Sequence record: MZ956761.1
DNA: 64,000 nt
Reading direction: 5' to 3' (one strand)
Origin: a phage
Shown here: piece after piece, positions 9,909 through 57,917 of the stretch
Numbering within the stretch: position 1 is the first letter of the stretch
How the letters are laid out: each line of letters starts with the position of its first letter
Notes under the pieces: model-generated
Seen by the model: the letters and a program-made list of their open reading frames with translations, nothing else
The model's database searches: none
What the model was told of the DNA's origin: nothing
Position numbers and translations under genes: made by a program

Positions 9909-10466
9909 ATGTCAGAAACTAAGCCTAAATATAATTACGTAAACAATAAAGAGCTTTTACAAGCTATTATTGATTGGAAAACAGAATTAGCAAATAATAA
10001 AGACCCAAATAAAGTAGTTCGTCAGAATGATACTATCGGATTAGCCATTATGCTTATTGCAGAAGGCTTATCTAAACGTTTCAACTTTTCAGGATACACC
10101 CAATCCTGGAAACAAGAAATGATTGCAGATGGTATAGAAGCTTCTATTAAGGGGCTTCATAATTTTGATGAAACGAAATATAAAAACCCACATGCATATA
10201 TAACTCAAGCTTGTTTTAATGCATTCGTCCAACGTATTAAAAAAGAACGTAAGGAAGTTGCAAAGAAATACAGTTACTTCGTTCACAATGTCTATGACAG
10301 TCGTGACGACGATATGGTTGCGTTAGTAGATGAAACTTTTATTCAAGACATCTACGATAAAATGACGCATTACGAAGAATCAACCTATAGAACACCGGGG
10401 GCTGAAAAGAAAAGTGTTGTAGACGATTCTCCTAGTTTGGATTTTTTATATGAGGCTAACGATTAA
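9909..10466 (+). CDS. 55: late-transcription sigma factor gp55
   Basis: 185 aa from ATG 9909; N-terminus [20 protein letters not shown] matches my recollection of T4 gp55. Confidence 0.9.
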
Positions 10467-17337: not shown

Positions 17338-17369
17338 ATAATTTACACTAAAACTTGAATGAGGAAATT

Positions 17370-18329
17370 ATGATTACCGTAAATGAAAAAGAACACATTC
17401 TTGAACAGAAATATCGTCCATCTACTATCGATGAATGTATTCTTCCCGCCTTTGATAAAGAAACCTTTAAATCTATTACAAGTAAAGGTAAGATTCCACA
17501 TATTATTCTTCATTCTCCTTCTCCAGGAACAGGTAAAACAACTGTAGCAAAAGCATTGTGTCATGATGTAAATGCTGATATGATGTTTGTGAATGGATCA
17601 GATTGTAAAATTGATTTTGTTCGTGGTCCTTTGACTAATTTTGCCAGCGCCGCTTCATTTGATGGTCGTCAAAAAGTAATCGTTATTGATGAATTTGACC
17701 GTTCAGGGCTAGCAGAGTCTCAGCGACATCTTCGTTCCTTTATGGAAGCTTATAGTTCAAACTGTAGTATTATTATTACTGCTAACAATATTGATGGTAT
17801 TATTAAACCGCTTCAGTCGCGCTGTCGAGTTATTACATTCGGTCAACCGACTGATGAAGATAAAATTGAAATGATGAAGCAGATGATTCGTCGATTGACT
17901 GAAATCTGCAAGCATGAAGGAATTGCTATAGCTGATATGAAAGTTGTAGCAGCTTTGGTTAAAAAGAATTTTCCTGATTTTCGTAAAACTATTGGTGAGC
18001 TCGATAGTTATTCATCTAAAGGTGTTTTGGATGCTGGTATTTTATCACTGGTTACTAACGATCGTGGTGCTATTGATGATGTTCTTGAGTCTCTCAAAAA
18101 TAAAGATGTTAAACAGCTCAGAGCTTTAGCGCCAAAATATGCAGCTGATTATTCGTGGTTCGTAGGTAAACTTGCCGAAGAAATTTATACACGCGTAACT
18201 CCGCAAAGTATTATTCGTATGTATGAAATTGTTGGTGAAAATAACCAGTATCATGGAATTGCGGCTAATACGGAATTACATTTAGCATATCTTTTCATTC
18301 AATTAGCATGCGAAATGCAGTGGAAGTGA
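17370..18329 (+). CDS. 44: clamp-loader large subunit gp44 (AAA+)
   Basis: 319 aa from ATG 17370; Walker [11 protein letters not shown]; N-terminus [17 protein letters not shown] as recalled for T4. Confidence 0.9.
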
Positions 18330-19568: not shown

Positions 19569-22262
19569 AAAGAATTTTATATCTCTATCGAAACAGTCGG
19601 AAATAACATTGTTGAGCGTTATATTGATGAAAATGGAAAGGAACGTACTCGTGAAGTAGAATATCTTCCGACTATGTTTAGGCATTGTAAGGAAGAGTCA
19701 AAATACAAAGACATTTATGGTAAAAACTGTGCTCCTCAAAAATTTCCATCAATGAAAGATGCACGAGACTGGATGAAGCGAATGGAAGACATCGGTCTCG
19801 AAGCTCTCGGTATGAACGATTTTAAACTCGCTTATATCAGTGATACATATGGTTCAGAAATTGTTTATGACCGAAAATTTGTTCGTGTAGCTAACTGTGA
19901 CATTGAGGTTACTGGTGATAAATTTCCTGACCCAATGAAAGCAGAATATGAAATTGATGCTATCACTCATTATGATTCAATTGACGACCGTTTTTACGTC
20001 TTTGATTTGTTGAATTCAATGTACGGTTCAGTATCAAAATGGGACGCAAAGTTAGCTGCTAAGCTTGACTGTGAAGGTGGTGATGAAGTTCCTCAAGAAA
20101 TTCTTGACCGAGTAATTTATATGCCATTTGATAATGAGCGTGATATGCTCATGGAATATATTAATCTCTGGGAACAGAAACGACCTGCTATTTTTACTGG
20201 TTGGAATATTGAGGGATTTGACGTTCCGTATATCATGAATCGCGTTAAAATGGTTCTCGGCGAACGTAGTATGAAACGCTTCTCTCCAATCGGTCGAGTA
20301 AAATCTAAACTAATTCAAAATATGTACGGTAGCAAAGAAATTTATTCTATTGATGGCGTATCTATTCTTGATTATTTAGATTTATACAAGAAGTTTGCAT
20401 TTACTAATTTGCCATCGTTCTCTTTGGAATCAGTTGCTCAACATGAAACCAAAAAAGGTAAATTGCCGTACGATGGTCCTATTAATAAACTTCGTGAGAC
20501 TAATCATCAACGATACATTAGTTATAACATCATTGACGTAGAATCAGTTCAAGCAATTGATAAAATTCGTGGGTTTATCGATCTAGTTTTAAGTATGTCT
20601 TATTACGCTAAAATGCCTTTTTCTGGTGTAATGAGTCCTATTAAAACTTGGGATGCTATTATTTTTAACTCACTGAAAGGTGAACATAAGGTTATTCCTC
20701 AACAAGGTTCGCACGTTAAACAGAGTTTTCCAGGTGCATTTGTGTTTGAACCTAAACCGATTGCTCGTCGATACATTATGAGTTTTGACTTGACGTCTCT
20801 GTATCCTAGCATTATTCGTCAGGTTAACATTAGTCCTGAGACTATTCGCGGGCAGTTTAAAGTTCATCCAATTCATGAATATATCGCAGGAACAGCTCCT
20901 AAGCCAAGTGATGAATATTCTTGCTCTCCGAATGGATGGATGTATGATAAGCACCAAGAAGGTATCATTCCAAAGGAAATCGCTAAAGTATTTTTCCAGC
21001 GTAAAGATTGGAAAAAGAAAATGTTCGCGGAAGAAATGAATGCCGAAGCTATTAAAAAGATTATTATGAAAGGTGCAGGGTCTTGCTCAACTAAACCAGA
21101 AGTTGAACGATATGTTAAGTTCAGTGATGATTTCTTAAACGAATTATCGAATTACACCGAATCTGTTCTTAACAGTCTGATTGAAGAATGTGAAAAAGCG
21201 GCTACACTTGCTAACACAAATCAGCTGAACCGTAAAATTCTTATTAACAGTCTTTATGGTGCTCTTGGTAATATTCATTTCCGCTACTATGATTTGCGAA
21301 ATGCTACTGCTATCACAATTTTCGGTCAAGTTGGTATTCAGTGGATTGCTCGTAAAATTAATGAATATCTGAATAAAGTATGTGGAACTAATGGTGAAGA
21401 TTTCATCGCAGCAGGTGATACTGATTCGGTATATGTTTGTGTAGATAAAGTAATTGAAAAAGTAGGTCTTGACCGCTTTAAAGAACAAAATGATTTAGTT
21501 GAATTCATGAATCAGTTTGGTAAGAAAAAGATGGAACCTATGATTGATGTTGCATATCGTGAGTTATGTGATTATATGAATAACCGCGAGCATCTGATGC
21601 ATATGGACCGTGAAGCTATTTCTTGCCCTCCGCTTGGTTCAAAGGGTGTTGGTGGATTTTGGAAAGCGAAAAAACGTTATGCTCTGAACGTTTATGATAT
21701 GGAAGATAAGCGATTTGCTGAACCGCATCTAAAAATCATGGGTATGGAAACTCAGCAGAGTTCAACACCAAAAGCAGTACAAGAAGCTCTCGAAGAAAGT
21801 ATTCGTCGTATTCTTCAGGAAGGTGAAGAGTCTGTCCAAGAATACTACAAGAACTTTGAGAAAGAATATCGTCAACTTGATTATAAAGTTATTGCTGAAG
21901 TAAAAACTGCGAACGATATAGCGAAATATGATGATAAAGGTTGGCCAGGATTTAAATGTCCGTTCCATATTCGTGGGGTGCTAACTTATCGTCGAGCTGT
22001 TAGTGGTTTAGGTGTAGCTCCAATTTTGGATGGAAATAAAGTAATGGTTCTTCCATTACGTGAAGGAAATCCATTTGGTGACAAGTGCATTGCTTGGCCG
22101 TCGGGCACAGAACTTCCAAAAGAAATTCGTTCTGACGTACTGTCTTGGATTGACTACTCAACTTTGTTCCAAAAATCGTTTGTTAAACCGCTTGCGGGCA
22201 TGTGTGAATCGGCTGGTATGGACTATGAAGAAAAAGCTTCGTTAGACTTCCTGTTTGGCTGA
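19566..22262 (+). CDS. 43: DNA polymerase gp43 (family B)
   Basis: 898 aa; exonuclease and polymerase motifs (KILINSLYGALGN, DTDS). Confidence 0.95.
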   Translation: MKEFYISIETVGNNIVERYIDENGKERTREVEYLPTMFRHCKEESKYKDIYGKNCAPQKFPSMKDARDWMKRMEDIGLEALGMNDFKLAYISDTYGSEIVYDRKFVRVANCDIEVTGDKFPDPMKAEYEIDAITHYDSIDDRFYVFDLLNSMYGSVSKWDAKLAAKLDCEGGDEVPQEILDRVIYMPFDNERDMLMEYINLWEQKRPAIFTGWNIEGFDVPYIMNRVKMVLGERSMKRFSPIGRVKSKLIQNMYGSKEIYSIDGVSILDYLDLYKKFAFTNLPSFSLESVAQHETKKGKLPYDGPINKLRETNHQRYISYNIIDVESVQAIDKIRGFIDLVLSMSYYAKMPFSGVMSPIKTWDAIIFNSLKGEHKVIPQQGSHVKQSFPGAFVFEPKPIARRYIMSFDLTSLYPSIIRQVNISPETIRGQFKVHPIHEYIAGTAPKPSDEYSCSPNGWMYDKHQEGIIPKEIAKVFFQRKDWKKKMFAEEMNAEAIKKIIMKGAGSCSTKPEVERYVKFSDDFLNELSNYTESVLNSLIEECEKAATLANTNQLNRKILINSLYGALGNIHFRYYDLRNATAITIFGQVGIQWIARKINEYLNKVCGTNGEDFIAAGDTDSVYVCVDKVIEKVGLDRFKEQNDLVEFMNQFGKKKMEPMIDVAYRELCDYMNNREHLMHMDREAISCPPLGSKGVGGFWKAKKRYALNVYDMEDKRFAEPHLKIMGMETQQSSTPKAVQEALEESIRRILQEGEESVQEYYKNFEKEYRQLDYKVIAEVKTANDIAKYDDKGWPGFKCPFHIRGVLTYRRAVSGLGVAPILDGNKVMVLPLREGNPFGDKCIAWPSGTELPKEIRSDVLSWIDYSTLFQKSFVKPLAGMCESAGMDYEEKASLDFLFG

Positions 22263-22275
22263 TAGAATAAATCTA

Positions 22276-22297
22276 GGGACCTCCGGGTCCCTTTTTC
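22276..22297 (+). terminator. intrinsic terminator after gene 43
   Basis: AGGGACC-TCCG-GGTCCCT-TTTT. Confidence 0.65.
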
Positions 22298-22378
22298 ATA
22301 CAAGTAATATAAATCTATACTTATGAAAAACAGATGATTCTGGACCTTTAGAATTCCCCAAAAAATTTTCACAAAACT

Positions 22379-22408
22379 GTTTACAAGACTGTTCTTCCAT
22401 GGTACTAT
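22379..22408 (+). promoter_or_regulatory. T4-type early promoter with conserved leader
   Basis: GTTTAC 22379-22384, TACTAT 22403-22408; leader to ATG identical to 49600-49644. Confidence 0.6.
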
Positions 22409-22442
22409 ACAACTATCAACTAATACGGATTTGGAGAATAAA

Positions 22443-22679
22443 ATGAAAATTGTTATGGGATGCTTAGCAGTTTGTTTAGTTGCATTAGCAGCTGTTCCAT
22501 TTATTGATATTGAAAATGATACTCAGAATGTGATTGAATCTAATACTGTTATTCACATGAATGGTAAAGTATCAACAAAAATTGATGATAATCTTCATAT
22601 GAATACTAATGGAACGCTGGGTGTTCAATTAGGTAATACCTGTGTAAGCACTACTGGAGTAATTACTACTTGTATTTGA
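22443..22679 (+). CDS. hypothetical secreted protein (78 aa)
   Basis: ATG 22443 with GGAG RBS; N-terminal signal-like hydrophobic segment. Confidence 0.5.
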   Translation: MKIVMGCLAVCLVALAAVPFIDIENDTQNVIESNTVIHMNGKVSTKIDDNLHMNTNGTLGVQLGNTCVSTTGVITTCI

Positions 22680-22689
22680 GGAAATTATT

Positions 22690-23070
22690 ATGAAAATCGC
22701 TATTTTGGTTATTGCATTAGGTCTTACTGGTTGTGTAGCTCAAGGACCGGTAGTAAATCAGTCTGATGTAGGAAAAATTGTAAACTGTTCAAGCAAATTT
22801 TATAATCCTAATGTCAAGTGTTATAAAGAAGCTCCAAAACAGACAGTAGAACAAATGCAGGCGAATTTTGACGAAGCTATTCGTCCAGATGAATCTGCTC
22901 AAGCATATCGTAATTCGGATGTAATTACACGCGAAGAAAAAATTGAAAACTACTGCGCTGAACTTTGGGCTAATTGGGCTAATAATTACCAATGGCGTAC
23001 TGGTAAAAATGCTCCGATGGAGTATGTAGTGAATTCTTATAATTCATGTGTAAAAAATTTGACTAAGTGA
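22690..23070 (+). CDS. putative lipoprotein (126 aa)
   Basis: Signal peptide with lipobox LTGC. Confidence 0.55.
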   Translation: MKIAILVIALGLTGCVAQGPVVNQSDVGKIVNCSSKFYNPNVKCYKEAPKQTVEQMQANFDEAIRPDESAQAYRNSDVITREEKIENYCAELWANWANNYQWRTGKNAPMEYVVNSYNSCVKNLTK

Positions 23071-23077
23071 GGAAAAC

Positions 23078-23329
23078 ATGGAAACTTTAGTAGCAGGTTC
23101 AATTTTTATGGTTTTAGTTTCAGGTGTGTTGGCTATTATTATATACATGCTTCCATGGTTTATCGCCTTGATGCGTGGGTCAAAATCGACAGTAGGAATC
23201 TTTTTCACATCTTTACTGTTTAACTGGTCAATTATTGGTTGGTTTATTACATTTATTTGGTCAATTGCGGGTGAAACTAAAAAGTCTGCACAACCAAATC
23301 AGGTAATTATCATCAGAGAGAAGGAATGA
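23078..23329 (+). CDS. imm: two-TM membrane protein, candidate Imm (superinfection immunity)
   Basis: 83 aa, two hydrophobic helices; position between 43 and 42 and size match T4 imm; sequence not verified. Confidence 0.5.
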   Translation: METLVAGSIFMVLVSGVLAIIIYMLPWFIALMRGSKSTVGIFFTSLLFNWSIIGWFITFIWSIAGETKKSAQPNQVIIIREKE

Positions 23330-23475
23330 AAAGCAAAATTATAGCAGTGTTGCTTTTAATCTTGATGATTATAATAAGTATATACTATAGTGTAACGGTT
23401 CCTCTTATGATTCCAACTATTATTTTAGGTTGGGGTTTATTACTGTTACAAGTTAAATATGAATGTATCAATTGA
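23326..23475 (+). CDS. hypothetical small membrane protein (49 aa)
   Basis: ATGA-coupled; strongly hydrophobic; below ORF-track cutoff. Confidence 0.35.
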   Translation: MKSKIIAVLLLILMIIISIYYSVTVPLMIPTIILGWGLLLLQVKYECIN

Positions 23476-23482
23476 GGTTTAA

Positions 23483-24223
23483 ATGATTAGTGACTCTATG
23501 ACAGTTGAAGAAATCCGTCTTCATTTGGGGCTTGCATTAAAAGAAAAAGATTTCGTAGTTGATAAAACCGGTGTTAAAACTATTGAAATTATTGGTGCAT
23601 CATTTGTAGCAGATGAACCGTTTATTTTTGGCGCTCTTAATGATGAATACATTCAACGTGAACTTGAATGGTATAAATCTAAAAGTTTGTTTGTTAAAGA
23701 TATTCCGGGTGAAACACCGAAGATTTGGCAGCAGGTAGCATCTTCTAAAGGCGAAATTAACTCGAATTATGGTTGGGCCATCTGGTCAGAAGATAACTAT
23801 GCCCAGTATGATATGTGTTTAGCTGAACTTGGTCAAAATCCTGATTCTCGGCGTGGTATCATGATTTATACTCGTCCATCCATGCAATTTGACTATAATA
23901 AAGATGGTATGTCAGATTTCATGTGCACGAATACAGTACAGTACCTGATTCGTGATAAGAAAGTTAATGCAGTAGTAAGCATGCGTTCAAATGACGTGGT
24001 CTTCGGATTCCGTAATGATTATGCATGGCAAAAATACGTACTAGATAAATTAGTATCTGATTTGAATGCAGGTGATTCAACTCGTCAGTATAAAGCAGGT
24101 TCTATTATATGGAATGTTGGAAGTCTTCATGTATATTCTCGTCATTTTTACTTGGTTGATCATTGGTGGAATACTGGCGAAACTCATATTGTGAAAAAAG
24201 ATTATAAAGGTGAGTGGAAATGA
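23483..24223 (+). CDS. 42: dCMP hydroxymethylase gp42
   Basis: 246 aa, thymidylate-synthase-like fold; synteny. Confidence 0.85.
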   Translation: MISDSMTVEEIRLHLGLALKEKDFVVDKTGVKTIEIIGASFVADEPFIFGALNDEYIQRELEWYKSKSLFVKDIPGETPKIWQQVASSKGEINSNYGWAIWSEDNYAQYDMCLAELGQNPDSRRGIMIYTRPSMQFDYNKDGMSDFMCTNTVQYLIRDKKVNAVVSMRSNDVVFGFRNDYAWQKYVLDKLVSDLNAGDSTRQYKAGSIIWNVGSLHVYSRHFYLVDHWWNTGETHIVKKDYKGEWK

Positions 24224-28597: not shown

Positions 28598-28640
28598 GTT
28601 TACAAGCTGATAGAGTTGTGTTATAGTAATTCTATCAGCT
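28598..28640 (+). promoter_or_regulatory. early promoter embedded in 10-bp perfect inverted repeat
   Basis: GTTTAC 28598-28603, TATAGT 28622-28627, arms AGCTGATAGA 28605-28614 / TCTATCAGCT 28631-28640. Confidence 0.6.
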
Positions 28641-29160: not shown

Positions 29161-29234
29161 AACTGAAATCACCAATTATTGCAATTTGTCTGTTTGCTTC
29201 TACTAGTGTTTACTTTTGTTGAAAATTGAGATAC

Positions 29235-29242: not shown

Positions 29243-29263
29243 TAAACTACTGAGGAGATTATC

Positions 29264-29557
29264 ATGAAAAAATTTGTTTTTGCTGCAATTTTTGCTTTGG
29301 CTTCTTGTACTGCTCAGCCTGCTATGGCGGGTTATGATAAAGATTTGTGTGAATGGTCTATGACTGCAGATCAGACTGAGGTTGAAACTCAAATTGAAGC
29401 AGATATTATGAATATCGTTGAGCGTGATCGTCCTGAAATGAAAGCTGAAGTGCAAAAACAGCTTAAGTCTGGTGGTGTAATGCAGTATAATTATGTTCTG
29501 TATTGCGATAAAAACTTTAATAATAAAAATATCATCGCTGAAGTGGTAGGTGAGTAA
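29264..29557 (+). CDS. sp: Spackle (Sp), periplasmic superinfection-exclusion protein
   Basis: 97 aa with signal peptide; sequence agrees with my recollection of T4 Sp. Confidence 0.75.
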   Translation: MKKFVFAAIFALASCTAQPAMAGYDKDLCEWSMTADQTEVETQIEADIMNIVERDRPEMKAEVQKQLKSGGVMQYNYVLYCDKNFNNKNIIAEVVGE

Positions 29558-31330: not shown

Positions 31331-31357
31331 TATTGCTTTATATATTTATTGTATAAT
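31331..31357 (+). promoter_or_regulatory. candidate MotA-dependent middle promoter for gene 56
   Basis: TATTGCTTTA box 31331-31340, TATAAT 31352-31357. Confidence 0.45.
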
Positions 31358-41591: not shown

Positions 41592-41621
41592 AGTTTAAAA
41601 TTTTTCATAAAACTATATACA

Positions 41622-41663
41622 TCAGTAGTTGATTATGGTACTATATCAATATCAACTACTGAT
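41622..41663 (+). repeat. 13-bp perfect inverted repeat around a promoter-like loop
   Basis: ATCAGTAGTTGAT 41622-41634 / ATCAACTACTGAT 41651-41663. Confidence 0.6.
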
Positions 41664-41687
41664 ACAGAAAATAACTTGGAGAATAAA

Positions 41688-41957
41688 ATGGAAAACTTAA
41701 TTATCATCGAGCAATCTTTCAATGATTATGGTATGGCTTATGGTTATCGTGCGATAATGGAAGATTCTCGTGGATGTGTTATCGATATTGCTGAATGTAA
41801 AGATTTACTGCAGCTTTTGAAGATTGTTCGTAAAAATTGGGATTGTGAAAACATTAAAGCTCGTGTTGTAACGGAAGAAGAAACTGTTTTTCATGATGTA
41901 AAATTCGCTAAAGGTGCTGCTACTCTTCTGAAACGTATCGCTCCACTGTTTAATTAA
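41688..41957 (+). CDS. hypothetical protein (89 aa)
   Basis: ATG 41688 with GGAG RBS. Confidence 0.45.
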   Translation: MENLIIIEQSFNDYGMAYGYRAIMEDSRGCVIDIAECKDLLQLLKIVRKNWDCENIKARVVTEEETVFHDVKFAKGAATLLKRIAPLFN

Positions 41958-43499: not shown

Positions 43500-45317
43500 A
43501 TGATTAAGAATGAAATTAAAATTCTGAGCGATATTGAACATATCAAAAAGCGTAGTGGCATGTACATTGGCTCTTCAGCTAATGAAATGCATGAGCGCTT
43601 TCTGTTTGGTAAATGGGAAAGTGTTCAGTATGTACCTGGTCTTGTTAAGCTTATTGATGAAATTATCGATAACTCAGTAGATGAAGGTATTCGTACTAAG
43701 TTTAAATTCGCAAATAAAATTAATGTTACTATTAAAAACAATCAAGTAACAGTTGAAGATAACGGTCGCGGTATTCCACAAGCGATGGTTAAAACACCTA
43801 CCGGTGAAGAAATTCCTGGTCCAGTTGCTGCTTGGACTATTCCAAAAGCGGGTGGTAACTTTGGTGATGATAAAGAACGTGTCACCGGTGGTATGAATGG
43901 TGTTGGTTCTAGTTTAACTAACATTTTTTCTGTGATGTTTGTCGGTGAAACTGGCGATGGTCAAAATAATATTGTAGTTCGTTGTTCAAATGGCATGGAA
44001 AATAAATCCTGGGAAACTATTCCTGGAAAATGGAAAGGAACTCGTGTTACTTTCATTCCAGATTTTATGTCATTTGAAACTAATGAGCTGTCCCAAGTTT
44101 ATCTTGACATTACACTAGATCGTCTCCAGACACTTGCTGTTGTTTATCCCGATATTCAATTTACCTTTAATGGTAAAAAGGTTCAAGGCAATTTTAAGAA
44201 ATATGCACGCCAATATGATGAGCATGCTATTGTTCAAGAACAAGAAAACTGTTCTATTGCAGTTGGTCGTTCACCGGATGGTTTTCGTCAATTAACTTAT
44301 GTGAATAACATTCACACTAAGAATGGTGGCCATCACATTGACTGTGTTATGGATGATATTTGTGAAGACTTTATTCCACAAATCAAACGTAAGTTCAAAA
44401 TTGATGTAACTAAAGCACGTGTTAAAGAATGTTTGACTATCGTTATGTTTGTTCGTGATATGAAAAACATGCGATTTGATTCTCAAACTAAAGAGCGTTT
44501 GACTTCTCCATTTGGTGAAATCCGTAGTCATATTCAGCTTGATGCTAAAAAGATTTCACGCGCTATTCTAAATAATGAAGCAATTCTAATGCCGATTATC
44601 GAAGCTGCTTTGGCTCGTAAATTGGCGGCAGAAAAAGCAGCAGAAACTAAAGCAGCTAAAAAGGCTTCTAAAGCTAAGGTTCATAAACATATCAAAGCGA
44701 ATCTTTGTGGTAAAGATGCTGACACTACTCTTTTCTTGACTGAGGGTGATTCTGCTATCGGATATCTTATTGATGTTCGTGATAAAGAACTTCATGGTGG
44801 TTATCCATTACGTGGTAAAGTTCTCAACAGTTGGGGTATGTCTTATGCAGATATGCTTAAAAACAAAGAACTATTTGATATTTGCGCAATCACTGGTCTA
44901 GTTCTCGGTGAAAAAGCTGAAAACTTGAATTATCATAATATTGCTATTATGACCGATGCTGACCACGATGGTCTAGGAAGCATTTATCCTTCTCTGCTCG
45001 GATTTTTTAGTAATTGGCCAGAACTGTTTGAACAAGGAAGAATTCGCTTTGTCAAAACTCCTGTAATCATCGCTCAGGTCGGTAAAAAACAAGAATGGTT
45101 TTATACAGTCGCTGAATATGAGAGTGCCAAAGATGCTCTACCTAAACATAGCATCCGTTATATTAAGGGACTTGGCTCTTTGGAAAAATCTGAATATCGT
45201 GAGATGATTCAAAACCCAGTATATGATGTTGTTAAACTTCCTGAGAACTGGAAAGAGCTTTTTGAAATGCTCATGGGAGATAACGCTGACCTTCGTAAAG
45301 AATGGATGAGCCAGTAG
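43500..45317 (+). CDS. 39: topoisomerase II large subunit gp39 (GyrB-like, fused 39+60 type)
   Basis: 605 aa from ATG 43500; GHKL ATPase motifs; single uninterrupted ORF. Confidence 0.9.
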   Translation: MIKNEIKILSDIEHIKKRSGMYIGSSANEMHERFLFGKWESVQYVPGLVKLIDEIIDNSVDEGIRTKFKFANKINVTIKNNQVTVEDNGRGIPQAMVKTPTGEEIPGPVAAWTIPKAGGNFGDDKERVTGGMNGVGSSLTNIFSVMFVGETGDGQNNIVVRCSNGMENKSWETIPGKWKGTRVTFIPDFMSFETNELSQVYLDITLDRLQTLAVVYPDIQFTFNGKKVQGNFKKYARQYDEHAIVQEQENCSIAVGRSPDGFRQLTYVNNIHTKNGGHHIDCVMDDICEDFIPQIKRKFKIDVTKARVKECLTIVMFVRDMKNMRFDSQTKERLTSPFGEIRSHIQLDAKKISRAILNNEAILMPIIEAALARKLAAEKAAETKAAKKASKAKVHKHIKANLCGKDADTTLFLTEGDSAIGYLIDVRDKELHGGYPLRGKVLNSWGMSYADMLKNKELFDICAITGLVLGEKAENLNYHNIAIMTDADHDGLGSIYPSLLGFFSNWPELFEQGRIRFVKTPVIIAQVGKKQEWFYTVAEYESAKDALPKHSIRYIKGLGSLEKSEYREMIQNPVYDVVKLPENWKELFEMLMGDNADLRKEWMSQ

Positions 45318-45347
45318 TTTACTTTACCACAAGGATGTGGTATAATT
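45318..45347 (+). promoter_or_regulatory. T4-type early promoter (duplicate of 308-337)
   Basis: GTTTAC 45318-45323, TATAAT 45342-45347. Confidence 0.6.
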
Positions 45348-45371: not shown

Positions 45372-45575
45372 ATGAAATCATATAAAGTAAATTTAGAGCT
45401 TTTTGATAAAGCAGTTCATCGAGAATATAGAATCATTCAGCGCTTTTTCGATATGGGAGAAGCCGAAGAATTTAAAAACCGCTTTAAAGATATTAGAGAT
45501 AAAATTCAATCCGACACCGCAACTAAAGATGAACTACTAGAAGTTGCTGAAGTTATTAAGCGTAATATGAATTAA
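45372..45575 (+). CDS. hypothetical protein (67 aa)
   Basis: ORF with GAGGA RBS. Confidence 0.45.
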
Positions 45576-45585
45576 TGAGGAAATT

Positions 45586-47763
45586 ATGATTATCACCACT
45601 GAAAAAGAAACAATTCTTGGTAATGGTTCTAAATCAAAAGCATTTAGCATCGCAGCAAATCCTAAAGTATTTAAAATTCTATCATCTGATTTGTATACAA
45701 ACAAGATTCGCGCAGTAGTCCGTGAATTGATTACTAACATGATTGATGCCCATGCACTTAATGGAAATCCTGAAAAATTTATCATACAAGTTCCTGGACG
45801 TTTAGACCCACGATTTGTTTGTCGAGATTTTGGTCCGGGTATGAGTGATTTTGATATTCAGGGTGATGATAATTCTCCTGGACTGTATAATTCATACTTC
45901 AGTTCATCTAAGGCTGAATCTAACGATTTCATTGGCGGATTTGGTTTAGGTTCTAAATCTCCATTTAGTTATACTGATACGTTTAGTATTACTTCGTATC
46001 ATAAAGGTGAAATTCGTGGTTATGTAGCTTACATGGATGGTGATGGCCCACAGATTAAACCTACATTCGTAAAAGAAATGGGTCCAGATGATAAAACTGG
46101 TATTGAAATCGTAGTTCCAGTTGAAGAAAAAGACTTTAGAAACTTTGCTTATGAAGTTTCTTATATCATGCGACCGTTCAAAGATTTGGCTATCATTAAT
46201 GGTCTTGACCGCGAAATTGATTATTTTCCGGATTTTGATGATTATTATGGCGTAAATCCAGAAAGATACTGGCCAGATCGTGGTGGATTATATGCTATCT
46301 ATGGCGGTATTGTTTATCCTATCGATGGTGTTATTAGAGACCGTAACTGGTTAAGCATTCGCAATGAAGTGAATTACATTAAGTTTCCAATGGGTTCACT
46401 TGATATTGCTCCATCTCGCGAGGCTCTTTCACTGGATGATCGTACTCGTAAAAATATTATTGAGCGTGTTAAAGAGCTTAGTGAGAAGGCATTCAATGAA
46501 GATGTAAAACGATTTAAAGAATCCACATCTCCCCGTCATACATATCGTGAATTGATGAAGATGGGATATTCTGCTCGAGATTATATGATTAGTAATTCAG
46601 TCAAATTTACGACTAAAAATCTGTCATATAAGAAGATGCAAAGCATGTTTGAACCTGATAGTAAGTTATGTAATGCAGGAGTTGTGTATGAAGTAAATCT
46701 TGACCCTCGACTGAAGCGCATTAAGCAAAGTCATGAAACTTCAGCCGTTGCATCAAGTTATCGTCTGTTTGGTATTAATGCAACAAAGATTAATATCGTT
46801 ATTGATAATATTAAAAATCGTGTTAATATTGTCCGTGGATTAGCACATGCGTTAGATGATAGTGAATTTAATAACACTTTGAATATTCATCACAACGAAC
46901 GCCTTCTGTTTATTAATCCAGAAGTAGAATCGCAGATTGATTTGCTTCCTGATATTATGGCGATGTTTGAAAGTGATGAAGTTAACATTCATTATTTGTC
47001 AGAAATTGAAGCTTTAGTTAAAAGCTATATTCCAAAGGTAGTTAAAAGTAAAGCTCCTCGTCCTAAAGCTGCTACAGCATTTAAGTTTGAAATTAAAGAC
47101 GGGCGCTGGGAAAAAGAGGAATTATTTACGCTCACATCAGAAGCAGATGAAATTACTGGGTATGTAGCGTATATGCATCGTTCTGATATTTTCTCTATGG
47201 ATGGTACTACATCTCTTTGTCATCCATCTATGAATATTTTGATTCGTATGGCTAATCTTATTGGCATTAATGAATTTTATGTTATTCGTCCGCTTTTGCA
47301 GAAAAAGGTAAAAGAACTCGGTCAGTGCCAATGTATTTTTGAAACTCTGCGTGATTTATATGTAGATGCTTTTGATGATGTAGATTATGATAAGTATGTA
47401 GGTTATTCAAGTTCAGCTCAACGATATATTGATAAAATTATCAAGTATCCTGAACTAGATTTTATGATGAAGTACTTCAGTACAGATGAAGTTTCTGAAG
47501 AATATACACGACTCGCTAATATAGTTAGTTCATTGCGCGGCGTATATTTTAATGGTGGAAAAGATACCATCGGTCATGACATCTGGACAGTAACTAATCT
47601 TTTTGATGTATTATCAAATAATGCTTCAAAAAACAGTGATAAAATGGTTGCTGAGTTTACCAAGAAATTCCGTATTGTTTCCGACTTCATCGGATATCGC
47701 AACTCTTTAAGCGATGATGAAGTTTCCCAAATCGCTAAAACTATGAAGGCCCTTGCGGCCTAA
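45586..47763 (+). CDS. rIIA: rIIA protein (GHKL-ATPase-like N-terminus)
   Basis: 725 aa, identical in length to T4 rIIA; directly followed by a 312-aa ORF. Confidence 0.85.
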
Positions 47764-47774
47764 TAAGGAAAATT

Positions 47775-48713
47775 ATGTACAATATTAAATGCCTGACCAA
47801 AAACGAACAAGCTGAAATTGTTAAACTGTATTCAAGTGGTAATTACACCCAACAGGAATTGGCTTATTGGAAGGATGTATCGGTTGATACAATCCGTCGT
47901 GTTTTGAAAAATGCTGAAGAAGCTAAACGCCCTAAAGTTACTATTAGCGGTGATATTACAGTTAAAGTTAATAGCGATGCAGTTATTGCTCCAGTTGCTA
48001 AATCTGACATTATTTGGAATGCATCTAAAAAATTCATTTCAATTACTGTTGACGGTGTAACTTATAACGCAACTCCTAATACTCATTCAAACTTCCAGGA
48101 AATTCTTAATCTGCTTGTAGCAGATAAGTTGGAAGAAGCGGCACAAAAAATTAATGTTCGTCGCGCTGTTGAAAAATATATTTCCGGCGATGTTCGAATT
48201 GAAGGCGGAAGCTTGTTCTATCAAAATATCGAATTACGGTCTGGTTTAGTTGATCGTATTCTCGATTCGATGGAAAAAGGTGAAAACTTTGAATTTTATT
48301 TTCCGTTCTTGGAAAATCTGCTGGAAAACCCAAGCCAGAAAGCGGTATCTCGACTCTTTGATTTCTTGGTAGCAAACGATATTGAAATTACAGAAGATGG
48401 TTACTTCTATGCTTGGAAAGTAGTTCGTGACAACTACTTTGACTGTCACTCAAACACCTTTGATAACAGTCCTGGTAAAGTAGTTAAAATGCCGCGTACT
48501 CGTGTGAATGACGATGATACACAAACTTGTTCTCGTGGTCTGCATGTGTGTTCTAAATCTTATATTCGTCACTTTGGCAGTTCAACCAGCCGAGTTGTAA
48601 AAGTTAAAGTACATCCACGTGATGTAGTATCAATTCCGATTGATTACAACGATGCTAAAATGCGTACCTGCCAATACGAAGTAGTTGAAGACGTTACTGA
48701 ACAATTTAAATAA
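47775..48713 (+). CDS. rIIB: rIIB protein
   Basis: 312 aa, same as T4 rIIB; synteny. Confidence 0.85.
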   Translation: MYNIKCLTKNEQAEIVKLYSSGNYTQQELAYWKDVSVDTIRRVLKNAEEAKRPKVTISGDITVKVNSDAVIAPVAKSDIIWNASKKFISITVDGVTYNATPNTHSNFQEILNLLVADKLEEAAQKINVRRAVEKYISGDVRIEGGSLFYQNIELRSGLVDRILDSMEKGENFEFYFPFLENLLENPSQKAVSRLFDFLVANDIEITEDGYFYAWKVVRDNYFDCHSNTFDNSPGKVVKMPRTRVNDDDTQTCSRGLHVCSKSYIRHFGSSTSRVVKVKVHPRDVVSIPIDYNDAKMRTCQYEVVEDVTEQFK

Positions 48714-48726
48714 GGGCTTCGGCCCT
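48711..48726 (+). terminator. UUCG-loop hairpin after rIIB
   Basis: AAGGGC-TTCG-GCCCTT. Confidence 0.55.
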
Positions 48727-48745
48727 TATCATATTAAGGAAAATT

Positions 48746-48940
48746 ATGTTAGGTTATCAAGCACGAGTAAAAGAAGAATACGATCAATTAATGCTCAAAA
48801 TTAATGCACTGAGCAAATTTTTAGAAAGCACAAAGTTTCTAACGGTTAGTGCAGTTGAGCAAGAACTGCTGCTTTCACAGTTCATCTCAATGAAATCTTA
48901 TGCTGAGTGTCTAGAGAAAAGAATCGCACAATTCAAATAA
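48746..48940 (+). CDS. hypothetical protein (64 aa)
   Basis: ORF bracketed by two near-identical hairpins. Confidence 0.45.
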   Translation: MLGYQARVKEEYDQLMLKINALSKFLESTKFLTVSAVEQELLLSQFISMKSYAECLEKRIAQFK

Positions 48941-48944
48941 AATA

Positions 48945-48967
48945 AGGGCTTCGGCCCTTTTGTTTTA
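48945..48967 (+). terminator. intrinsic terminator
   Basis: AAGGGC-TTCG-GCCCTT-TTGTTTT. Confidence 0.6.
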
Positions 48968-49003
48968 AGAGAAATTATGATTCCGACATAAAGGAAAGTT
49001 TAA

Positions 49004-49561
49004 ATGCAGAAAACGAATCCGGGTTTGCAGAGACTATTTCAGATTCCGTCATTTACCCTATCGAACAGTGACTTGACTAGTGAAATGAAGGCCAAAATTG
49101 CTGATACTGCAAGATATTCTTTAAAGCAAAATCCAAATCAGGATAAGGCAGAAGTTATCGAAAGATGCCGTATCGCTGTGTACGCAGAGTTTTTTGTGGC
49201 AGATTGGCTGAGCGGATATGTCAATAAAGGCCAAGAAGATGTCGATGATCCGTACACATATGCATGGGATGTTTTAGCACATCCAAAATACTGCGGGCTT
49301 CGTGTAGAAGTTAAGACACATCAAACTGACTCACGTTGGATTTCGGTGACAACAGGATGCAGCGGAGAGTATCCATATGGTTCTGGAATAAATCTAGGGC
49401 CCATTCTAAATCATCAAGTCGCTGACTGTATAATTATATTCAACACTAAAGAAATTCATCCAGGTGTCATCCAGTACACTCCGAAGTTCATCGGTGACAG
49501 AGAAGACCTTCGTAAAGTTGTAAGAAAAAGCAACTACAACGGATGGTATCTTTCCATTTAA
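49004..49561 (+). CDS. denB: endonuclease IV (DenB) by size and position
   Basis: 185 aa, adjacent to rIIB as in T4. Confidence 0.6.
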   Translation: MQKTNPGLQRLFQIPSFTLSNSDLTSEMKAKIADTARYSLKQNPNQDKAEVIERCRIAVYAEFFVADWLSGYVNKGQEDVDDPYTYAWDVLAHPKYCGLRVEVKTHQTDSRWISVTTGCSGEYPYGSGINLGPILNHQVADCIIIFNTKEIHPGVIQYTPKFIGDREDLRKVVRKSNYNGWYLSI

Positions 49562-49577
49562 AAAATTTCACAAAATG

Positions 49578-49608
49578 GTTTACATACCACAAGGACCGTG
49601 GTACTATA
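49578..49608 (+). promoter_or_regulatory. T4-type early promoter with conserved leader
   Basis: GTTTAC 49578-49583, TACTAT 49603-49608; leader identical to 22401-22445. Confidence 0.6.
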
Positions 49609-49641
49609 CAACTATCAACTAATACGGATTTGGAGAATAAA

Positions 49642-49848
49642 ATGTTTACTACAGCTGAATTAAAACGAGCAAAAGCTAAGAAAGGGCAAGGGAAATATAA
49701 AGCTGAACTAGTTAAAGAACTTCAATTTGCTGAGGCTGAGTTGAATTCGATGATTATTCAAAATGCTCCAGAAACTGAAATTGCTCTTAAACGTATTGCG
49801 AATAAGTGTCTTCGTGATGCAATCGTTGATCTTTTAGCGGATTATTGA
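49642..49848 (+). CDS. hypothetical protein (68 aa)
   Basis: ATG 49642 with GGAG RBS. Confidence 0.45.
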   Translation: MFTTAELKRAKAKKGQGKYKAELVKELQFAEAELNSMIIQNAPETEIALKRIANKCLRDAIVDLLADY

Positions 49849-50117
49849 GTAAAATGAAATTTAAATTTTATTATGCTAAGCATAAAATAACTGATGAGTT
49901 TGTGTCAGTTGAATATTCTAGCGATGATGAAGGTATGATTTATACTCGCTTAGGATTATCGCATTGGGAGTCTGATCAGCCTTATTTTTCAACTCCTGAA
50001 GAAATTACACGCTTAGTTAATGGTCATATGAATGATCACTGGAATGTAATTCTTTCAGATAGTCTTAAAGCGGCTATTAATAGTAATGAAATGAAAATCG
50101 CTGAGATTGAACTATGA
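49845..50117 (+). CDS. hypothetical protein (90 aa)
   Basis: ATGA-coupled ORF. Confidence 0.45.
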   Translation: MSKMKFKFYYAKHKITDEFVSVEYSSDDEGMIYTRLGLSHWESDQPYFSTPEEITRLVNGHMNDHWNVILSDSLKAAINSNEMKIAEIEL

Positions 50118-50200
50118 GTTCATTATGGTGGTGTTTTGTTTGGTTAATTAGTATTCCATTAATTTGTTTAACATTTACTTTTGTAATGAGGTTATTATGA
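50114..50200 (+). CDS. candidate hydrophobic micro-protein (28 aa)
   Basis: ATGA-coupled; single TM-like segment; speculative. Confidence 0.25.
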   Translation: MSSLWWCFVWLISIPLICLTFTFVMRLL

Positions 50201-50295
50201 AAATTTTGAATTCTGTGCTTATTGCTTGTGCGTGGTGGGTTGCGCAAGTTTCAGCGGTAGTAGTTGGTATTCACATTTATTACGAATATTTTTAA
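50197..50295 (+). CDS. candidate hydrophobic micro-protein (32 aa)
   Basis: ATGA-coupled; TM-like; speculative. Confidence 0.25.
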   Translation: MKILNSVLIACAWWVAQVSAVVVGIHIYYEYF

Positions 50296-50302
50296 AAAAG
50301 TT

Positions 50303-50332
50303 GTTTACAAGACTGTTCCTCTGTGGTATTAT
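50303..50332 (+). promoter_or_regulatory. T4-type early promoter
   Basis: GTTTAC 50303-50308, TATTAT 50327-50332; first 16 nt identical to promoter 22379. Confidence 0.55.
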
Positions 50333-50360
50333 TACCCTATCAACTACGGAGGAACAGAAA

Positions 50361-50474
50361 ATGAAAAAGATTGTTAAAGCTATATGGAATGTAGTTATAA
50401 TACTAGTAGTTTTGAGTATATTCCCAATCGTTTTAATGATTGATGTATTAAACGCTTACTTTGGATTTATGTGA
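50361..50474 (+). CDS. candidate hydrophobic micro-protein (37 aa)
   Basis: ATG with GGAGG RBS; TM-like. Confidence 0.3.
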   Translation: MKKIVKAIWNVVIILVVLSIFPIVLMIDVLNAYFGFM

Positions 50475-50481
50475 GGAAAAT

Positions 50482-50679
50482 ATGAAGCGTAAACGCGGTG
50501 CTTTTACATTTATTGAATGGTTTTTCGATAATATTTTTCCAGCTTTATTCATTTTCATGCTGATTTTCGCCTTAGGTTCAGTTGTAGTTGGAATCTATTT
50601 GATGGCAGTTGTCGGAATGGACATTCATCAAAATGGCTTAAAATCTGTAGTTGAAACAATTTGGAATGGTGTAAAATGA
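50482..50679 (+). CDS. hypothetical membrane protein (65 aa)
   Basis: ATG 50482 with GAGGA RBS; two hydrophobic segments. Confidence 0.4.
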   Translation: MKRKRGAFTFIEWFFDNIFPALFIFMLIFALGSVVVGIYLMAVVGMDIHQNGLKSVVETIWNGVK

Positions 50680-50786
50680 TGAATTTGCTGAGTGGTTGGT
50701 TTTATATTCTCATGTTTTACATTGGTGCAAATTTCCCATATTGGATGGGATGGTCAACAACTGCATTCGGATTTTATACTCCTTGA
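50676..50786 (+). CDS. candidate hydrophobic micro-protein (36 aa)
   Basis: ATGA-coupled; speculative. Confidence 0.25.
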   Translation: MMNLLSGWFYILMFYIGANFPYWMGWSTTAFGFYTP

Positions 50787-50794
50787 GGTGAATT

Positions 50795-51010
50795 ATGAAA
50801 ATCTTTAAAGATGTAAAAGTTGGTGAAATTTTCTGTTTAGATAACGGTGATCAGTTAATTCGTATTTCACCTCTTAAGAGCACTAGCGAGAAACCGACAG
50901 TTAATGCTACTTTAGCAAATAACAGTAATGAACGTTTCTGTATTGAAAATGATACTGAAACTTATACCGTAGAAGAGTTTTGGAAATTGAGCGTCGACTG
51001 CGACGATTAA
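50795..51010 (+). CDS. hypothetical protein (71 aa)
   Basis: ORF with GAGG RBS. Confidence 0.45.
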   Translation: MKIFKDVKVGEIFCLDNGDQLIRISPLKSTSEKPTVNATLANNSNERFCIENDTETYTVEEFWKLSVDCDD

Positions 51011-51070
51011 TTTATCGGCCGTGTGTATTCATGCGGCCTTGGAGTAGAAAATAATTTAGAGGAAATTAAT

Positions 51071-51529
51071 ATGAAATATATGACTGTTACTGATCTGAAT
51101 GATGCAGGTGCTACTGTTATTGGTACAATCAAGGGTGGTGAGTGGTTTTTGGGAACTCCGCACAAAGACATTTTGTCTAAACCTGGATTTTACTTTTTAG
51201 TAAGTAAATTAGATGGTCGTCCATTTAGTAATCCATGTGTGTCTGCACGATTTTATGTAGGTAATCAGCGTTCTAAGCAAGGATTCAGTGCAGTTCTAAG
51301 TCATATTCGTCAACGTCGGTCTCAGCTTGCACGTACTATTGCAAATAACAATATGGTATACACGGTGTTTTATCTGCCTGCTTCTAAGATGAAACCTCTG
51401 ACGACGGGATTTGGAAAAGGTCAGTTAGCTTTGGCGTTTACTCGTAATCATCATTCTGAGTATCAAACACTTGAAGAAATGAACCGTATGTTGGCTGATA
51501 ACTTTAAATTTGTTTTGCAGGCATATTAA
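51071..51529 (+). CDS. ndd: nucleoid disruption protein Ndd (by size and position)
   Basis: 152 aa from ATG 51071; immediately upstream of stp. Confidence 0.55.
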
Positions 51530-53609: not shown

Positions 53610-53639
53610 GTTTACAACCAAAGCATACTGTGGTACTAT
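53610..53639 (+). promoter_or_regulatory. T4-type early promoter for motA
   Basis: GTTTAC 53610-53615, TACTAT 53634-53639. Confidence 0.6.
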
Positions 53640-53680
53640 ACAACTATCAACTACTGATACAGAATTACGGAGATTAGAAA

Positions 53681-54316
53681 ATGTCTAAAGTAACTTACAT
53701 CATCAAAGCTTCTAACGATGTTCTGAATGAAAAAACTGCTGCGATTTTAATTACCATTGCTAAGAAAGATTTCATTACAGCTGCAGAAGTTCGTGAGGTG
53801 CATCCAGATTTAGGTAACGCAGTAGTTAATAGTAATATTGGGGTATTGATTAAAAAAGGCCTGGTGGAGAAATCTGGTGATGGATTAATCATTACAGGCG
53901 AAGCTCAGGATATTATTTCAAATGCAGCAACTTTATATGCGCAGGAAAATGCTCCTGAACTACTGAAAAAACGAGCAACTCGTAAAGCTCGTGAGATTAC
54001 TTCCGATATGGAAGAAGATAAAGACTTCATGTTAAAACTTTTAGATGAAAATGGATTTGTTCTTAAAAAGGTTGAAACTTACCGCAGTAACTATCTTGCT
54101 ATTTTAGAAAAACGCACTCACGGAATTCGTAATTTTGAAATTAACAACAATGGAAATATGCGAATTTTTGGATACAAAATGATGGAACATCATATTCAGA
54201 AATTTACTGACATCGGAATGTCATGTAAAATCGCTAAAAACGGTAATGTGTATCTTGACATTAAACGCTCGGCAGAAAACATTGAAGCAGTAATCACCGT
54301 AGCATCTGAACTGTGA
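53681..54316 (+). CDS. motA: middle-transcription activator MotA
   Basis: 211 aa; N-terminus MSKVTYIIKASNDVLNEKTAAIL as recalled for T4 MotA. Confidence 0.85.
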   Translation: MSKVTYIIKASNDVLNEKTAAILITIAKKDFITAAEVREVHPDLGNAVVNSNIGVLIKKGLVEKSGDGLIITGEAQDIISNAATLYAQENAPELLKKRATRKAREITSDMEEDKDFMLKLLDENGFVLKKVETYRSNYLAILEKRTHGIRNFEINNNGNMRIFGYKMMEHHIQKFTDIGMSCKIAKNGNVYLDIKRSAENIEAVITVASEL

Positions 54317-57065: not shown

Positions 57066-57095
57066 AGACCCTCCTTTTAAGGATATTTATTCAAA

Positions 57096-57887
57096 TTATA
57101 CTCTTGCACCATATATTGTACCAACTTTAGTCCAAGTTGGAGCATTACCAGTAACAGCTTTACCTGCTGCGCCACCCGAGTGAACAGTTCCTCCAGTACC
57201 ACCTTGAATATATGAAGATTTGCCCGCAGCCCCCAAATCTCCACCATCTCCTCCATGGTGAACCCCAGAAACAGTACCTTTACCAGGAGCAGAAATTGTA
57301 GCGGCAGATGCTGCCGCTGCGCCGCCGCCTGCTGCACCCGCTGCACCAAATGGACGACCTCCGCCGCCACCAAATATCATATCCATCTGGGGGAAAGGAT
57401 GATATCTAGCACCAGCGCCACCACCACCTCCACCACCGATAATACCATTATTGTTTATTCTTAAACGAGTTCCAATTCCGTTATTTATTGCAGTTCCTCC
57501 TGCTCCACCAGCAGAGTTACTTCCGCCATTTCCTCCTCGACCCAATACATGAACACCACTATTAATATTTAAGGTAACATATGCATTAGTTAATGAGCTA
57601 GGAAAATCTAAGCATGGTTGACCTGTCGATGAAGAAACGATATTGCCTGTAATAGTAATAACAACAGGAGTACTTCCTTGGGCTTTTATCCAATTTATTA
57701 GTGTGTCTTTATTATAAGAATTGCTAGCACCAATGCTGTAATATACTTCTTTAGATTGTCCGGCCATTGAGCTCATCCAACCAGGAACTGAAACACGAAC
57801 TGCTCTCATCGCAGCATCCATCCAGCGTTGTCCAGTTTCATTCACGGCAGATTCACCAATCCAGCCAGGAACACCTACAATTGCCAT
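57096..57887 (-). CDS. 38: tail-fibre adhesin gp38 (T2-type, glycine-rich motifs)
   Basis: 263 aa; poly-Gly/Ala blocks (GGGGGGGAGA, GGGGRPFGAAGAAGGGAAA) separated by variable segments. Confidence 0.8.
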   Translation of the reverse strand: MAIVGVPGWIGESAVNETGQRWMDAAMRAVRVSVPGWMSSMAGQSKEVYYSIGASNSYNKDTLINWIKAQGSTPVVITITGNIVSSSTGQPCLDFPSSLTNAYVTLNINSGVHVLGRGGNGGSNSAGGAGGTAINNGIGTRLRINNNGIIGGGGGGGAGARYHPFPQMDMIFGGGGGRPFGAAGAAGGGAAAASAATISAPGKGTVSGVHHGGDGGDLGAAGKSSYIQGGTGGTVHSGGAAGKAVTGNAPTWTKVGTIYGARV

Positions 57888-57898
57888 TAAAAATCCTT

Positions 57899-57916
57899 AG
57901 AGGGCCGAAGCCCTCT
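57899..57916 (-). promoter_or_regulatory. UUCG-loop hairpin between genes 37 and 38
   Basis: On - strand AGAGGGC-TTCG-GCCCTCT directly before the gp38 RBS; no U tract. Confidence 0.45.
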
Positions 57917-57917
57917 T

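Follow-up and report, generated by a model that had tools for sequence, protein, structure and literature searches.

A duplicated T4-type early promoter-leader module with a RegB/S1-type Shine-Dalgarno sequence at the edge of variable gene cassettes in a Tequatrovirus

Two loci sharing a promoter-leader block

We analysed a 64,000-nt stretch of phage DNA (hereafter the window) that belongs to a Tequatrovirus. The two regions of interest, 21000-24000 and 48400-51400, match Escherichia phage ADUt at 100% identity and hundreds of T4-like genomes at 93-98%. At the first locus (site A) the order is gene 43 (DNA polymerase), copy A of the repeat described below, an ORF of 78-79 aa (ORF79), imm.1, imm and gene 42. 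At the second (site B) it is denB, copy B, an ORF of 68 aa (ORF68) and one of 87 aa (ORF87), which form the head of the ndd cluster (table 1). Early transcription runs along the + strand, and all early genes flanking both copies lie on that strand. Window position 1 corresponds to ADUt 13990 and position 21000 to ADUt 34983, an offset shift of 6 nt that implies a small difference in length between the window and ADUt somewhere in 1-21000. The window also holds a single N at 15338 (AGATAAAGCTAAAANAGTT).

The 45-mer GGTACTATACAACTATCAACTAATACGGATTTGGAGAATAAAATG is found exactly, on the + strand, at both loci. No further match was detected in the 64-kb window when up to three mismatches were allowed, and 100 dinucleotide-preserving shuffles produced 0 matches, which gives 0 expected by chance. 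The ATG at the 3' end of each copy opens a different ORF. The identity between the loci runs from the TG of the extended -10, which starts 2 nt 5' of the 45-mer, to this ATG. Further upstream, the UP elements and the -35 GTTTAC are alike, while the 16 nt between GTTTAC and TGG are wholly different, as are the coding sequences behind the copies. The original prediction had described an identical block in two copies 27 kb apart, each with the -10, leader, RBS and start codon of a different small ORF, and both the exact repeat and this anatomy are confirmed here.

The early-promoter consensus of phages PST and T4 is TTTACW-N17-TAYWAT (Comeau 2014, PMC4122927). The sequence TTTACA-N17-TACTAT at 22380-22408 and 49579-49607 fits it at the -35, the spacer and the -10. 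T4 early promoters combine UP, -35, TGn and -10 elements with additional conserved positions (Hinton 2010, PMC2988021); here, a TG precedes the -10 in both copies and AAAAAATTT(T)CACAAAA lies upstream of both. Of the matches to this consensus across the window, 16 lie on the + strand and one on the - strand, in line with the direction of early genes. Given the fit to the consensus and the TGn, the 45-mer comprises the G of TGn, the -10, the initial transcribed region, a leader of about 28 nt, the Shine-Dalgarno sequence (SD) and the ATG. By its sequence, each copy therefore represents the downstream half of an early promoter of T4 type, from which transcription would start near 22415 (copy A) and 49614 (copy B), judging by the position of the -10.

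The resemblance to the early sigma-70 promoters of T4 covers the A/T-rich UP element, the -35 GTTTAC, the 17-nt spacer, the TGn, the -10 TAYWAT and the early-gene orientation, and T4 itself carries the same sequences at the same two loci. Lists of T4 early promoters were reportedly given by Liebig and Ruger in 1989. Nothing essential differs from these promoters, except that the 45-mer spans the -10-to-ATG half alone, and that the subfamily of copies A and B (and of a third copy, C, described below) shares its entire leader, which most T4 early promoters do not. The ADUt record places a 105-nt minus-strand 'hypothetical protein' at 22296-22400, over the UP element, -35 and spacer of copy A, which is probably spurious. 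In the annotation of phage Kelasse, ORF68 has an N-terminal extension that overlaps denB.

Table 1. Coordinates of the features discussed in the text (positions in the window).
Feature	Position	Strand	Remarks
Terminator-like intrinsic stem-loop AGGGACCTCCGGGTCCCT with T-run	22275-22292	+	After gene 43; 87 nt 5' of the copy-A -35
Copy-A promoter, upstream half: A/T-rich UP element AAAAAATTTTCACAAAACT and -35 GTTTAC (22379-22384)	22360-22384	+	Matches published consensus
Copy A of the 45-mer: G of TGn, -10 TACTAT (22403-22408), leader, SD, ATG (22443-22445)	22401-22445	+	
ORF79, cargo gene, 78-79 aa, signal-peptide-like N-terminus	22443-22679	+	phrog_4189 (PHROG annotation without function)
imm.1 homologue, start ATGAAAATCGCT	22690-23070	+	The ORF79 indel has its right-hand junction at this start, in an 8-14-nt microhomology, ATGAAAAT
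Related early promoter-leader block, -35 ATATAC, GGTACTATATCAATATCAACTACTGATACAG...TTGGAGAATAAAATG	41615-41690	+	Holds the third exact RegB/S1 site of the window
Copy-B promoter, upstream half: UP element from the denB stop codon (49559-49561), -35 GTTTAC (49578-49583)	49560-49583	+	
Copy B of the 45-mer: -10 TACTAT (49602-49607), leader, RegB/S1-type SD (49632-49642), ATG (49642-49644)	49600-49644	+	
ORF68, cargo gene, 68 aa	49642-49848	+	phrog_4535 (PHROG annotation without function)
ORF87, 87 aa	49854-50117	+	phrog_2390 (PHROG annotation without function)
Relic AATGAAATGAAAATCGCT inside the 3' end of ORF87	50085-50102	+	Equals T4-type leader-end/imm.1-start junction; right junction of the 440-bp indel relative to T4
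Site-D early promoter, type-2 leader CAACTACGGAGGAACAGAAAATG	50303-50363	+	
motA early promoter-leader block (MSKVTYIIKASN...)	53610-53683	+	Shares GGTACTATACAACTATCAACTA

The leader, its RegB/S1 site and its relatives

The leader is unstructured, with fold z-scores of -0.11, -0.11 and +0.56. Its 31-nt form has a minimum free energy of -0.3 kcal/mol and an unpaired centroid, and the GGAG is also unpaired in the centroid of the 61-nt context of copy A, as would suit a RegB/S1 target. In Durand 2006 (PMC1702504), the RegB/S1 site is a single-stranded element of 11 nt needed for efficient cleavage by T4 RegB with ribosomal protein S1. The same study gives the consensus GGAGRAYARAA, i.e. GGA(G) followed by a 7-nt A-rich tract, with GGAGAAUAAAA as the optimum, and counts 26 RegB-cleaved sites in T4. 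The SD of both copies, GGAGAATAAAA (22433-22443 in copy A), is exactly this optimum. The 64 kb contain this exact sequence three times, with 0.10 expected: the sites are in copies A and B and, within a related block, at 41678, and all three are the SD of a gene that comes first after an early promoter. These sites resemble the SD-located sites of the motA and regB mRNAs, which RegB inactivates (Hinton 2010, PMC2988021). By analogy, the genes behind them would undergo an early burst followed by inactivation through the predicted cleavage. The T4 imm.1 variant, GGAGAAUGAAA, deviates from the RegB/S1 site at conserved position 8. That the conserved 3' end is an optimal site offers a functional reason for part of the identity between A and B; the original prediction had rightly read an RBS here but had left its RegB/S1 identity unnoticed.

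The same duplication is present in T4 at the same two loci, as the imm.1 leader after gene 43 and as the leader after denB. These two leaders read GGTACTATACAACTATCAACTACTGATACGGATTTGGAGAAT[G/A]AAATGAAAATCGCT and are one base apart; the T4 pair agrees at 47/48 positions from the -10 to the ATG, and the 12 nt past the ATG are also identical. ADUt has a third copy (site C) at ADUt 9924-9968, about 4 kb upstream of the window, which matches at 44/45 positions (G at position 22), has its own spacer and precedes a gene starting MKTVTINKG... in the nrdC-side region. The site-C copy was also found in phage G8 and in four metagenome or IMG/VR contigs. In the ADUt record, a 1137-bp 'thioredoxin' CDS begins 5' of the site-C promoter, probably owing to a mis-called start. 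Beyond the genus, the Gelderlandvirus Salmonella phage STML-198 (NC_027344.1 89265-89310) carries a near-identical block from -10 to SD, TACTATACAACTATCAACTGATACGGATTCGGAGAATAAAAT, downstream of a modA/B-like gene; its upstream sequence is different and lacks the GTTTAC -35, and an unrelated 59-aa ORF lies behind it. Our scans of IMG/VR and metagenomes recovered few T4-like contigs. Two metagenome matches (L016 and L021) were rejected as copies of the block, as they have a 21-nt pattern only in common with it and are unrelated. The other early promoters of the window have leaders unrelated to those of A and B. Together with the leader middle shared by the copies, this argues for common descent and not for convergence on a consensus. 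Spacers between -35 and -10 are site-specific. From this distribution, we take it that the repeat is old and widespread.

Related versions had been predicted at 50303-50363 and, before motA, at 53610-53683, and both are real promoter-leader blocks; the block at 41615-41690 is an additional one that had been missed. Similar partial repeats occur elsewhere in the window. The promoters at 306-337 and 45315-45346 are identical at 31/32 positions (TAGTTTACTTT[G/A]CCACAAGGATGTGGTATAAT) and lie 45 kb apart; their identity runs from -35 to -10 and their leaders are unrelated, the mirror image of the A/B pair. The leader/RBS sequence CTACTGAGGAGATTAT[T/C]ATGA is found at 349-369 and 29247-29267 (20/21), behind promoters 309 and 29209, whose bodies differ. 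The segments 17358-17403 and 45574-45619 are 83% identical over the RBS, the start codon and the first ~10 codons (AATGAGGAAATTATGATTA...GAAAAAGAA), and may belong to paralogous small genes. A family of UUCG-tetraloop terminators (GGGCTTCGGCCC and variants) is scattered across the early region, at about 8966, 12609, 17322, 19488, 43435, 48712 and 48944.

Cargo genes and breakpoints at the blocks

The first gene at site A differs among relatives, being imm.1, ORF79 or another gene. In T4, pSs-1, DCP2 and BCH953P4 the 233 bp of the ORF79 indel (22457-22689; breakpoints 22456/22690) are missing, and the block directly drives imm.1, with junctions that share ATGAAAAT. RB27 has the same promoter at this site, followed by a 'type-2' leader and a different gene. 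ORF79 is faithful to its site, with 326 places in 326 records.

Site B is found in four arrangements, all of which keep the same site-specific spacer. The type-1 leader is followed by ORF68 and ORF87 in ADUt, T2, RB27 and others, leads straight onto ORF87 in four IMG/VR contigs, and precedes an 8-codon mini-ORF in T4, where 440 bp are missing. In the remaining arrangement (teqdroes, pSs-1, G8, DCP2 and BCH953P4), a type-2 leader precedes ORF87. About 118 Tequatrovirus records, T2 and RB27 among them, carry ORF68 at this site; T4, teqdroes, pSs-1, G8, DCP2 and BCH953P4 lack it. The ORF is as site-faithful as ORF79 (129 places in 129 records). The replacement of the copy-B leader and ORF68 spans 225 bp (49621/49847), and position 49621 is inside the block. 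The 440-bp indel relative to T4 spans 49644/50085, and position 49644 is the last base of copy B.

Comparable events affect the related blocks. An indel of 197-200 bp relative to pSs-1, DCP2 and BCH953P4 begins 6-9 nt past the ATG of the block at 41615 (breakpoint 41695). At motA (breakpoints 53631/53653), an extra ORF is inserted in DCP2 and in OBRH01000009; in DCP2 it is flanked by direct repeats of ~30 nt, made of the end of the -10 and the leader, and followed by a second promoter. Two indels, of 603 bp (28603/29207) and 282 bp (28925/29208), join the -35 of the promoter at 28599 or 28914 to that of the promoter at 29209. The site-D spacer equals the site-A spacer in pSs-1, JK23 and G50, and sites D and B exchange segments of the -10 and initial transcribed sequence (ITS) in other genomes. 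Chimeric blocks of this kind occur: BCH953P4 combines the site-B spacer with a site-D-type -10/ITS, and OBRH01000009 combines the site-D spacer with an A/B-type -10/ITS.

We then surveyed the whole window against five relatives (T4, pSs-1, teqdroes, DCP2 and BCH953P4) for indels of at least 40 bp, with a 40-nt de-duplication. This revealed 26 distinct indels, 23 of which break between -45 and +20 relative to a start codon. Six fall in promoter blocks, or seven if two site-B events that were merged by the de-duplication are counted separately. Promoter blocks are enriched among breakpoints when compared with random positions (P = 8e-4). However, when the 6 out of 23 boundary events are compared with the 11.9% of starts that bear a promoter, the result depends on whether two boundaries (P = 0.41) or one (P = 0.047) are considered. 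The blocks thus exceed random positions and do not clearly exceed other gene starts, which reduces the claim that they are special indel hot spots. The 148-bp indel at 51621/51770 (relative to T4, teqdroes and DCP2) exemplifies the commoner breakpoints at promoter-less gene starts: its junctions are an RBS-start microhomology, GAGGA(A/G)AATAT..ATGAA, after the terminator GGCGTCTTCGGACGCC. The survey also showed ~1.4 kb of extra DNA at 31331-31352 in DCP2 and BCH953P4, possibly a mobile or homing-endonuclease gene. At 57090-61749, a hypervariable region downstream of motA/arn, BCH953P4 and DCP2 have 3.2-3.6 kb of sequence that does not align in place of 4.4-4.6 kb.

The original prediction regarded the repeats as recombination substrates that can shuffle downstream cargo, an idea that would suffer if their boundaries never coincided with synteny breakpoints. 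Breakpoints do lie at or inside both copies in the comparisons with the five relatives, and these, with the chimeras, speak for the idea, which is supported in part. But the A/B pair was never itself the recombining pair among the events observed. The right-hand junctions at A and B are RBS/ATG microhomologies of 8-14 nt and not a second block. Recombination of A with B would cost the genome 27 kb, including genes 42, 41, 56 and 39, which T4 genetics has established as essential. Movement of cargo between the two sites was likewise discarded, since ORF79 and ORF68 each occupy one place per record, at their own site.

Origin of the identity and its meaning

We consider it probable, at roughly three chances in four, that the 45-mers are paralogues, each the downstream half of an immediate-early promoter-leader module of T4 type, and that this module has been spread and patched among sites, with PeSL-type shuffling of what lies behind. 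Shuffling of this type has been described for T4-type phages, and the RB49 crossovers and T4/PST swaps cited below support the reading. In such a module, the host sigma-70 RNA polymerase would bind an 'uber' promoter (UP, -35 GTTTAC, 17-nt spacer, TGn, -10 TACTAT) and initiate about 7 nt past the -10. The unstructured leader would then display GGAGAAUAAAA 6 nt upstream of the AUG. As this sequence would serve at once as SD and as exact optimal target of T4 RegB/S1, the first gene behind each copy would have a burst of expression immediately upon infection, ended by RegB cleavage. One ancestral module would have been spread and patched among at least 3 to 5 sites per genome, namely A, B and C plus the relatives at motA and 41615, while selection on the promoter and on the RegB/S1-SD would keep its ends constant. 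Because the module heads clusters of small non-essential genes, its -35, -10/ITS and leader/ATG segments could act as short homologies at which whole-ORF cassettes are inserted, deleted or swapped between co-infecting relatives. The stability of the site-specific spacers across genomes suggests that A, B and C are old paralogues under selection rather than sequences frequently homogenised.

The 45/45 identity might nevertheless have a more recent source, a gene-conversion patch from copy A to copy B on top of shared ancestry, which we regard as a tentative possibility. Site B reads CTGATA[C/T]GG in 10 of 12 genomes; ADUt (G to A) and T4 (an ACT insertion) depart from this, and both recreate their own site-A variant. 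Yet ADUt requires just one G to A change, the T4 indel lies in a slippage-prone ACTACT repeat, the spacers 20 nt upstream are not homogenised, and the reasoning was made after the fact. A and B looked perfectly concerted in their evolution in the first three genomes, a signal that weakened as pairs were added. Permutation tests of within-genome matching gave p = 0.107 with 8 pairs; with 12 pairs, the count of identical A/B leaders (4 of 12 genomes) gave p = 0.053 and the sum of distances p = 0.16, the latter statistic ranging over 0.11-0.16. Gene conversion between A and B is accordingly suggestive and unproven.

These non-significant tests fit a scheme of pure functional constraint. Here A, B and C would be promoters that arose as paralogues long ago, and selection would have fixed their -10, initial transcribed sequence and RegB/S1-SD; recombination would have no part in the identity, and indels would simply occur at gene starts everywhere. 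The stable spacers agree with this scheme, as do the persistence of a near-identical copy in another genus and the indel survey, where breakpoints fall at gene starts with or without a promoter. The RegB/S1 consensus and the ATG account for the 3' 13 nt of the block. They do not account for the leader middle, CAACTAATACGGATTT, which has no known function and is common to A, B and C and not to other early promoters. Constraint also leaves aside the swaps of leader type at one site between close relatives (types 1 and 2 at site B; RB27 at site A), the B/D chimeras, the indels that join one -35 box to another, and the repeat-flanked cassette at motA. We thus find it rather improbable as the whole explanation. 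The opposite extreme seems just as doubtful to us: the -10-to-ATG block would be an actively propagated 'expression adaptor' of ~45 nt, which short-patch gene conversion would carry between sites, at least 3-5 of them in each genome, and across genera (from Tequatrovirus to Gelderlandvirus). It would give new ORFs immediate-early expression with RegB-timed shut-off, and site B would recently have been overwritten from A in ADUt and T4.

A further explanation, which we judge unlikely, is that both copies are full PeSL mobile cassettes and that the downstream ORFs were integrated as PeSL mini-circles. Circles have been shown for phage RB49, where experiments placed the crossovers in the interval from the -10 to the ATG or SD (Arbiol 2010, PMC2839356). 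They were also proposed for ndd.4/.5, whose PeSL-linked swaps distinguish T4 and PST in the ndd region (Comeau 2014, PMC4122927). Both copies here resemble PeSLs in that a strong early promoter is followed, at the 3' extremity, by SD and start codon, and in their position in hyperplastic regions, before ORFs without assigned function that vary between close relatives (ORF79, ORF68 and ORF87). Indel or replacement breakpoints also fall inside the elements (22456, 49621, 49644, 28603/29207, 28925/29208, 41695 and 53631/53653), with an excess over gene starts that is not demonstrated. Short direct repeats flank the insertions, AAT[A/G]AAATG at 49636-49644 and 50085-50093 and ATGAAAAT at 22443-22450 and 22690-22697, as expected of the product of single-crossover circle integration. 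However, these repeats are merely 8-9 nt long, and simple deletion between microhomologies explains the same junctions, which do not involve a second PeSL on the right-hand side. Mini-circles have not been demonstrated in Tequatrovirus. Copy B has no stem-loop: the denB stop abuts its UP element, and the nearest terminator (48944-48959) is ~620 nt upstream. The terminator of copy A, at 87 nt, is neither adjacent nor overlapping and is a loose match at best. The predicted likeness to PeSLs therefore extends to the early promoter, SD and ATG, the variable ORFs and the internal breakpoints, but stops at the stem-loop, which makes these elements early promoter-leader modules and not full PeSLs. 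The exchange of whole small genes with junctions in conserved flanking regulatory sequence also recalls the T-even internal-protein locus, a different locus (Repoila 1994, as cited in Comeau 2014, PMC4122927).

We give virtually no chance to a structured leader RNA with a cis-regulatory role, such as a riboswitch, attenuator or sRNA target, or to a repeat produced by chance or by assembly. Nothing beyond the sequence conservation itself favours these ideas. Fold z-scores are near 0, no Rfam family matches anywhere in the 64-kb window, 0 matches are expected by chance, and hundreds of independently sequenced genomes, T4 included, conserve both loci.

The 45-mer pair is real and belongs to a known class of element, the T4 early promoter-leader module, here with an SD of the RegB/S1 type, two copies at conserved loci and variable cassettes at its edge. 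Early promoters, PeSL-type shuffling and the RegB/S1 site have all been published, and the pair adds no new principle. It has value for annotation, as the ADUt record lacks promoters and RegB sites and has spurious CDSs over them, and the locus is suited to testing gene conversion from block to block. The pair provides a base-level example of the gain and loss of accessory genes at conserved regulatory sequence. It would also explain how small accessory genes of T4-like phages, such as superinfection-immunity genes and ORFs without assigned function, come to be expressed strongly, briefly and immediately early in infection.
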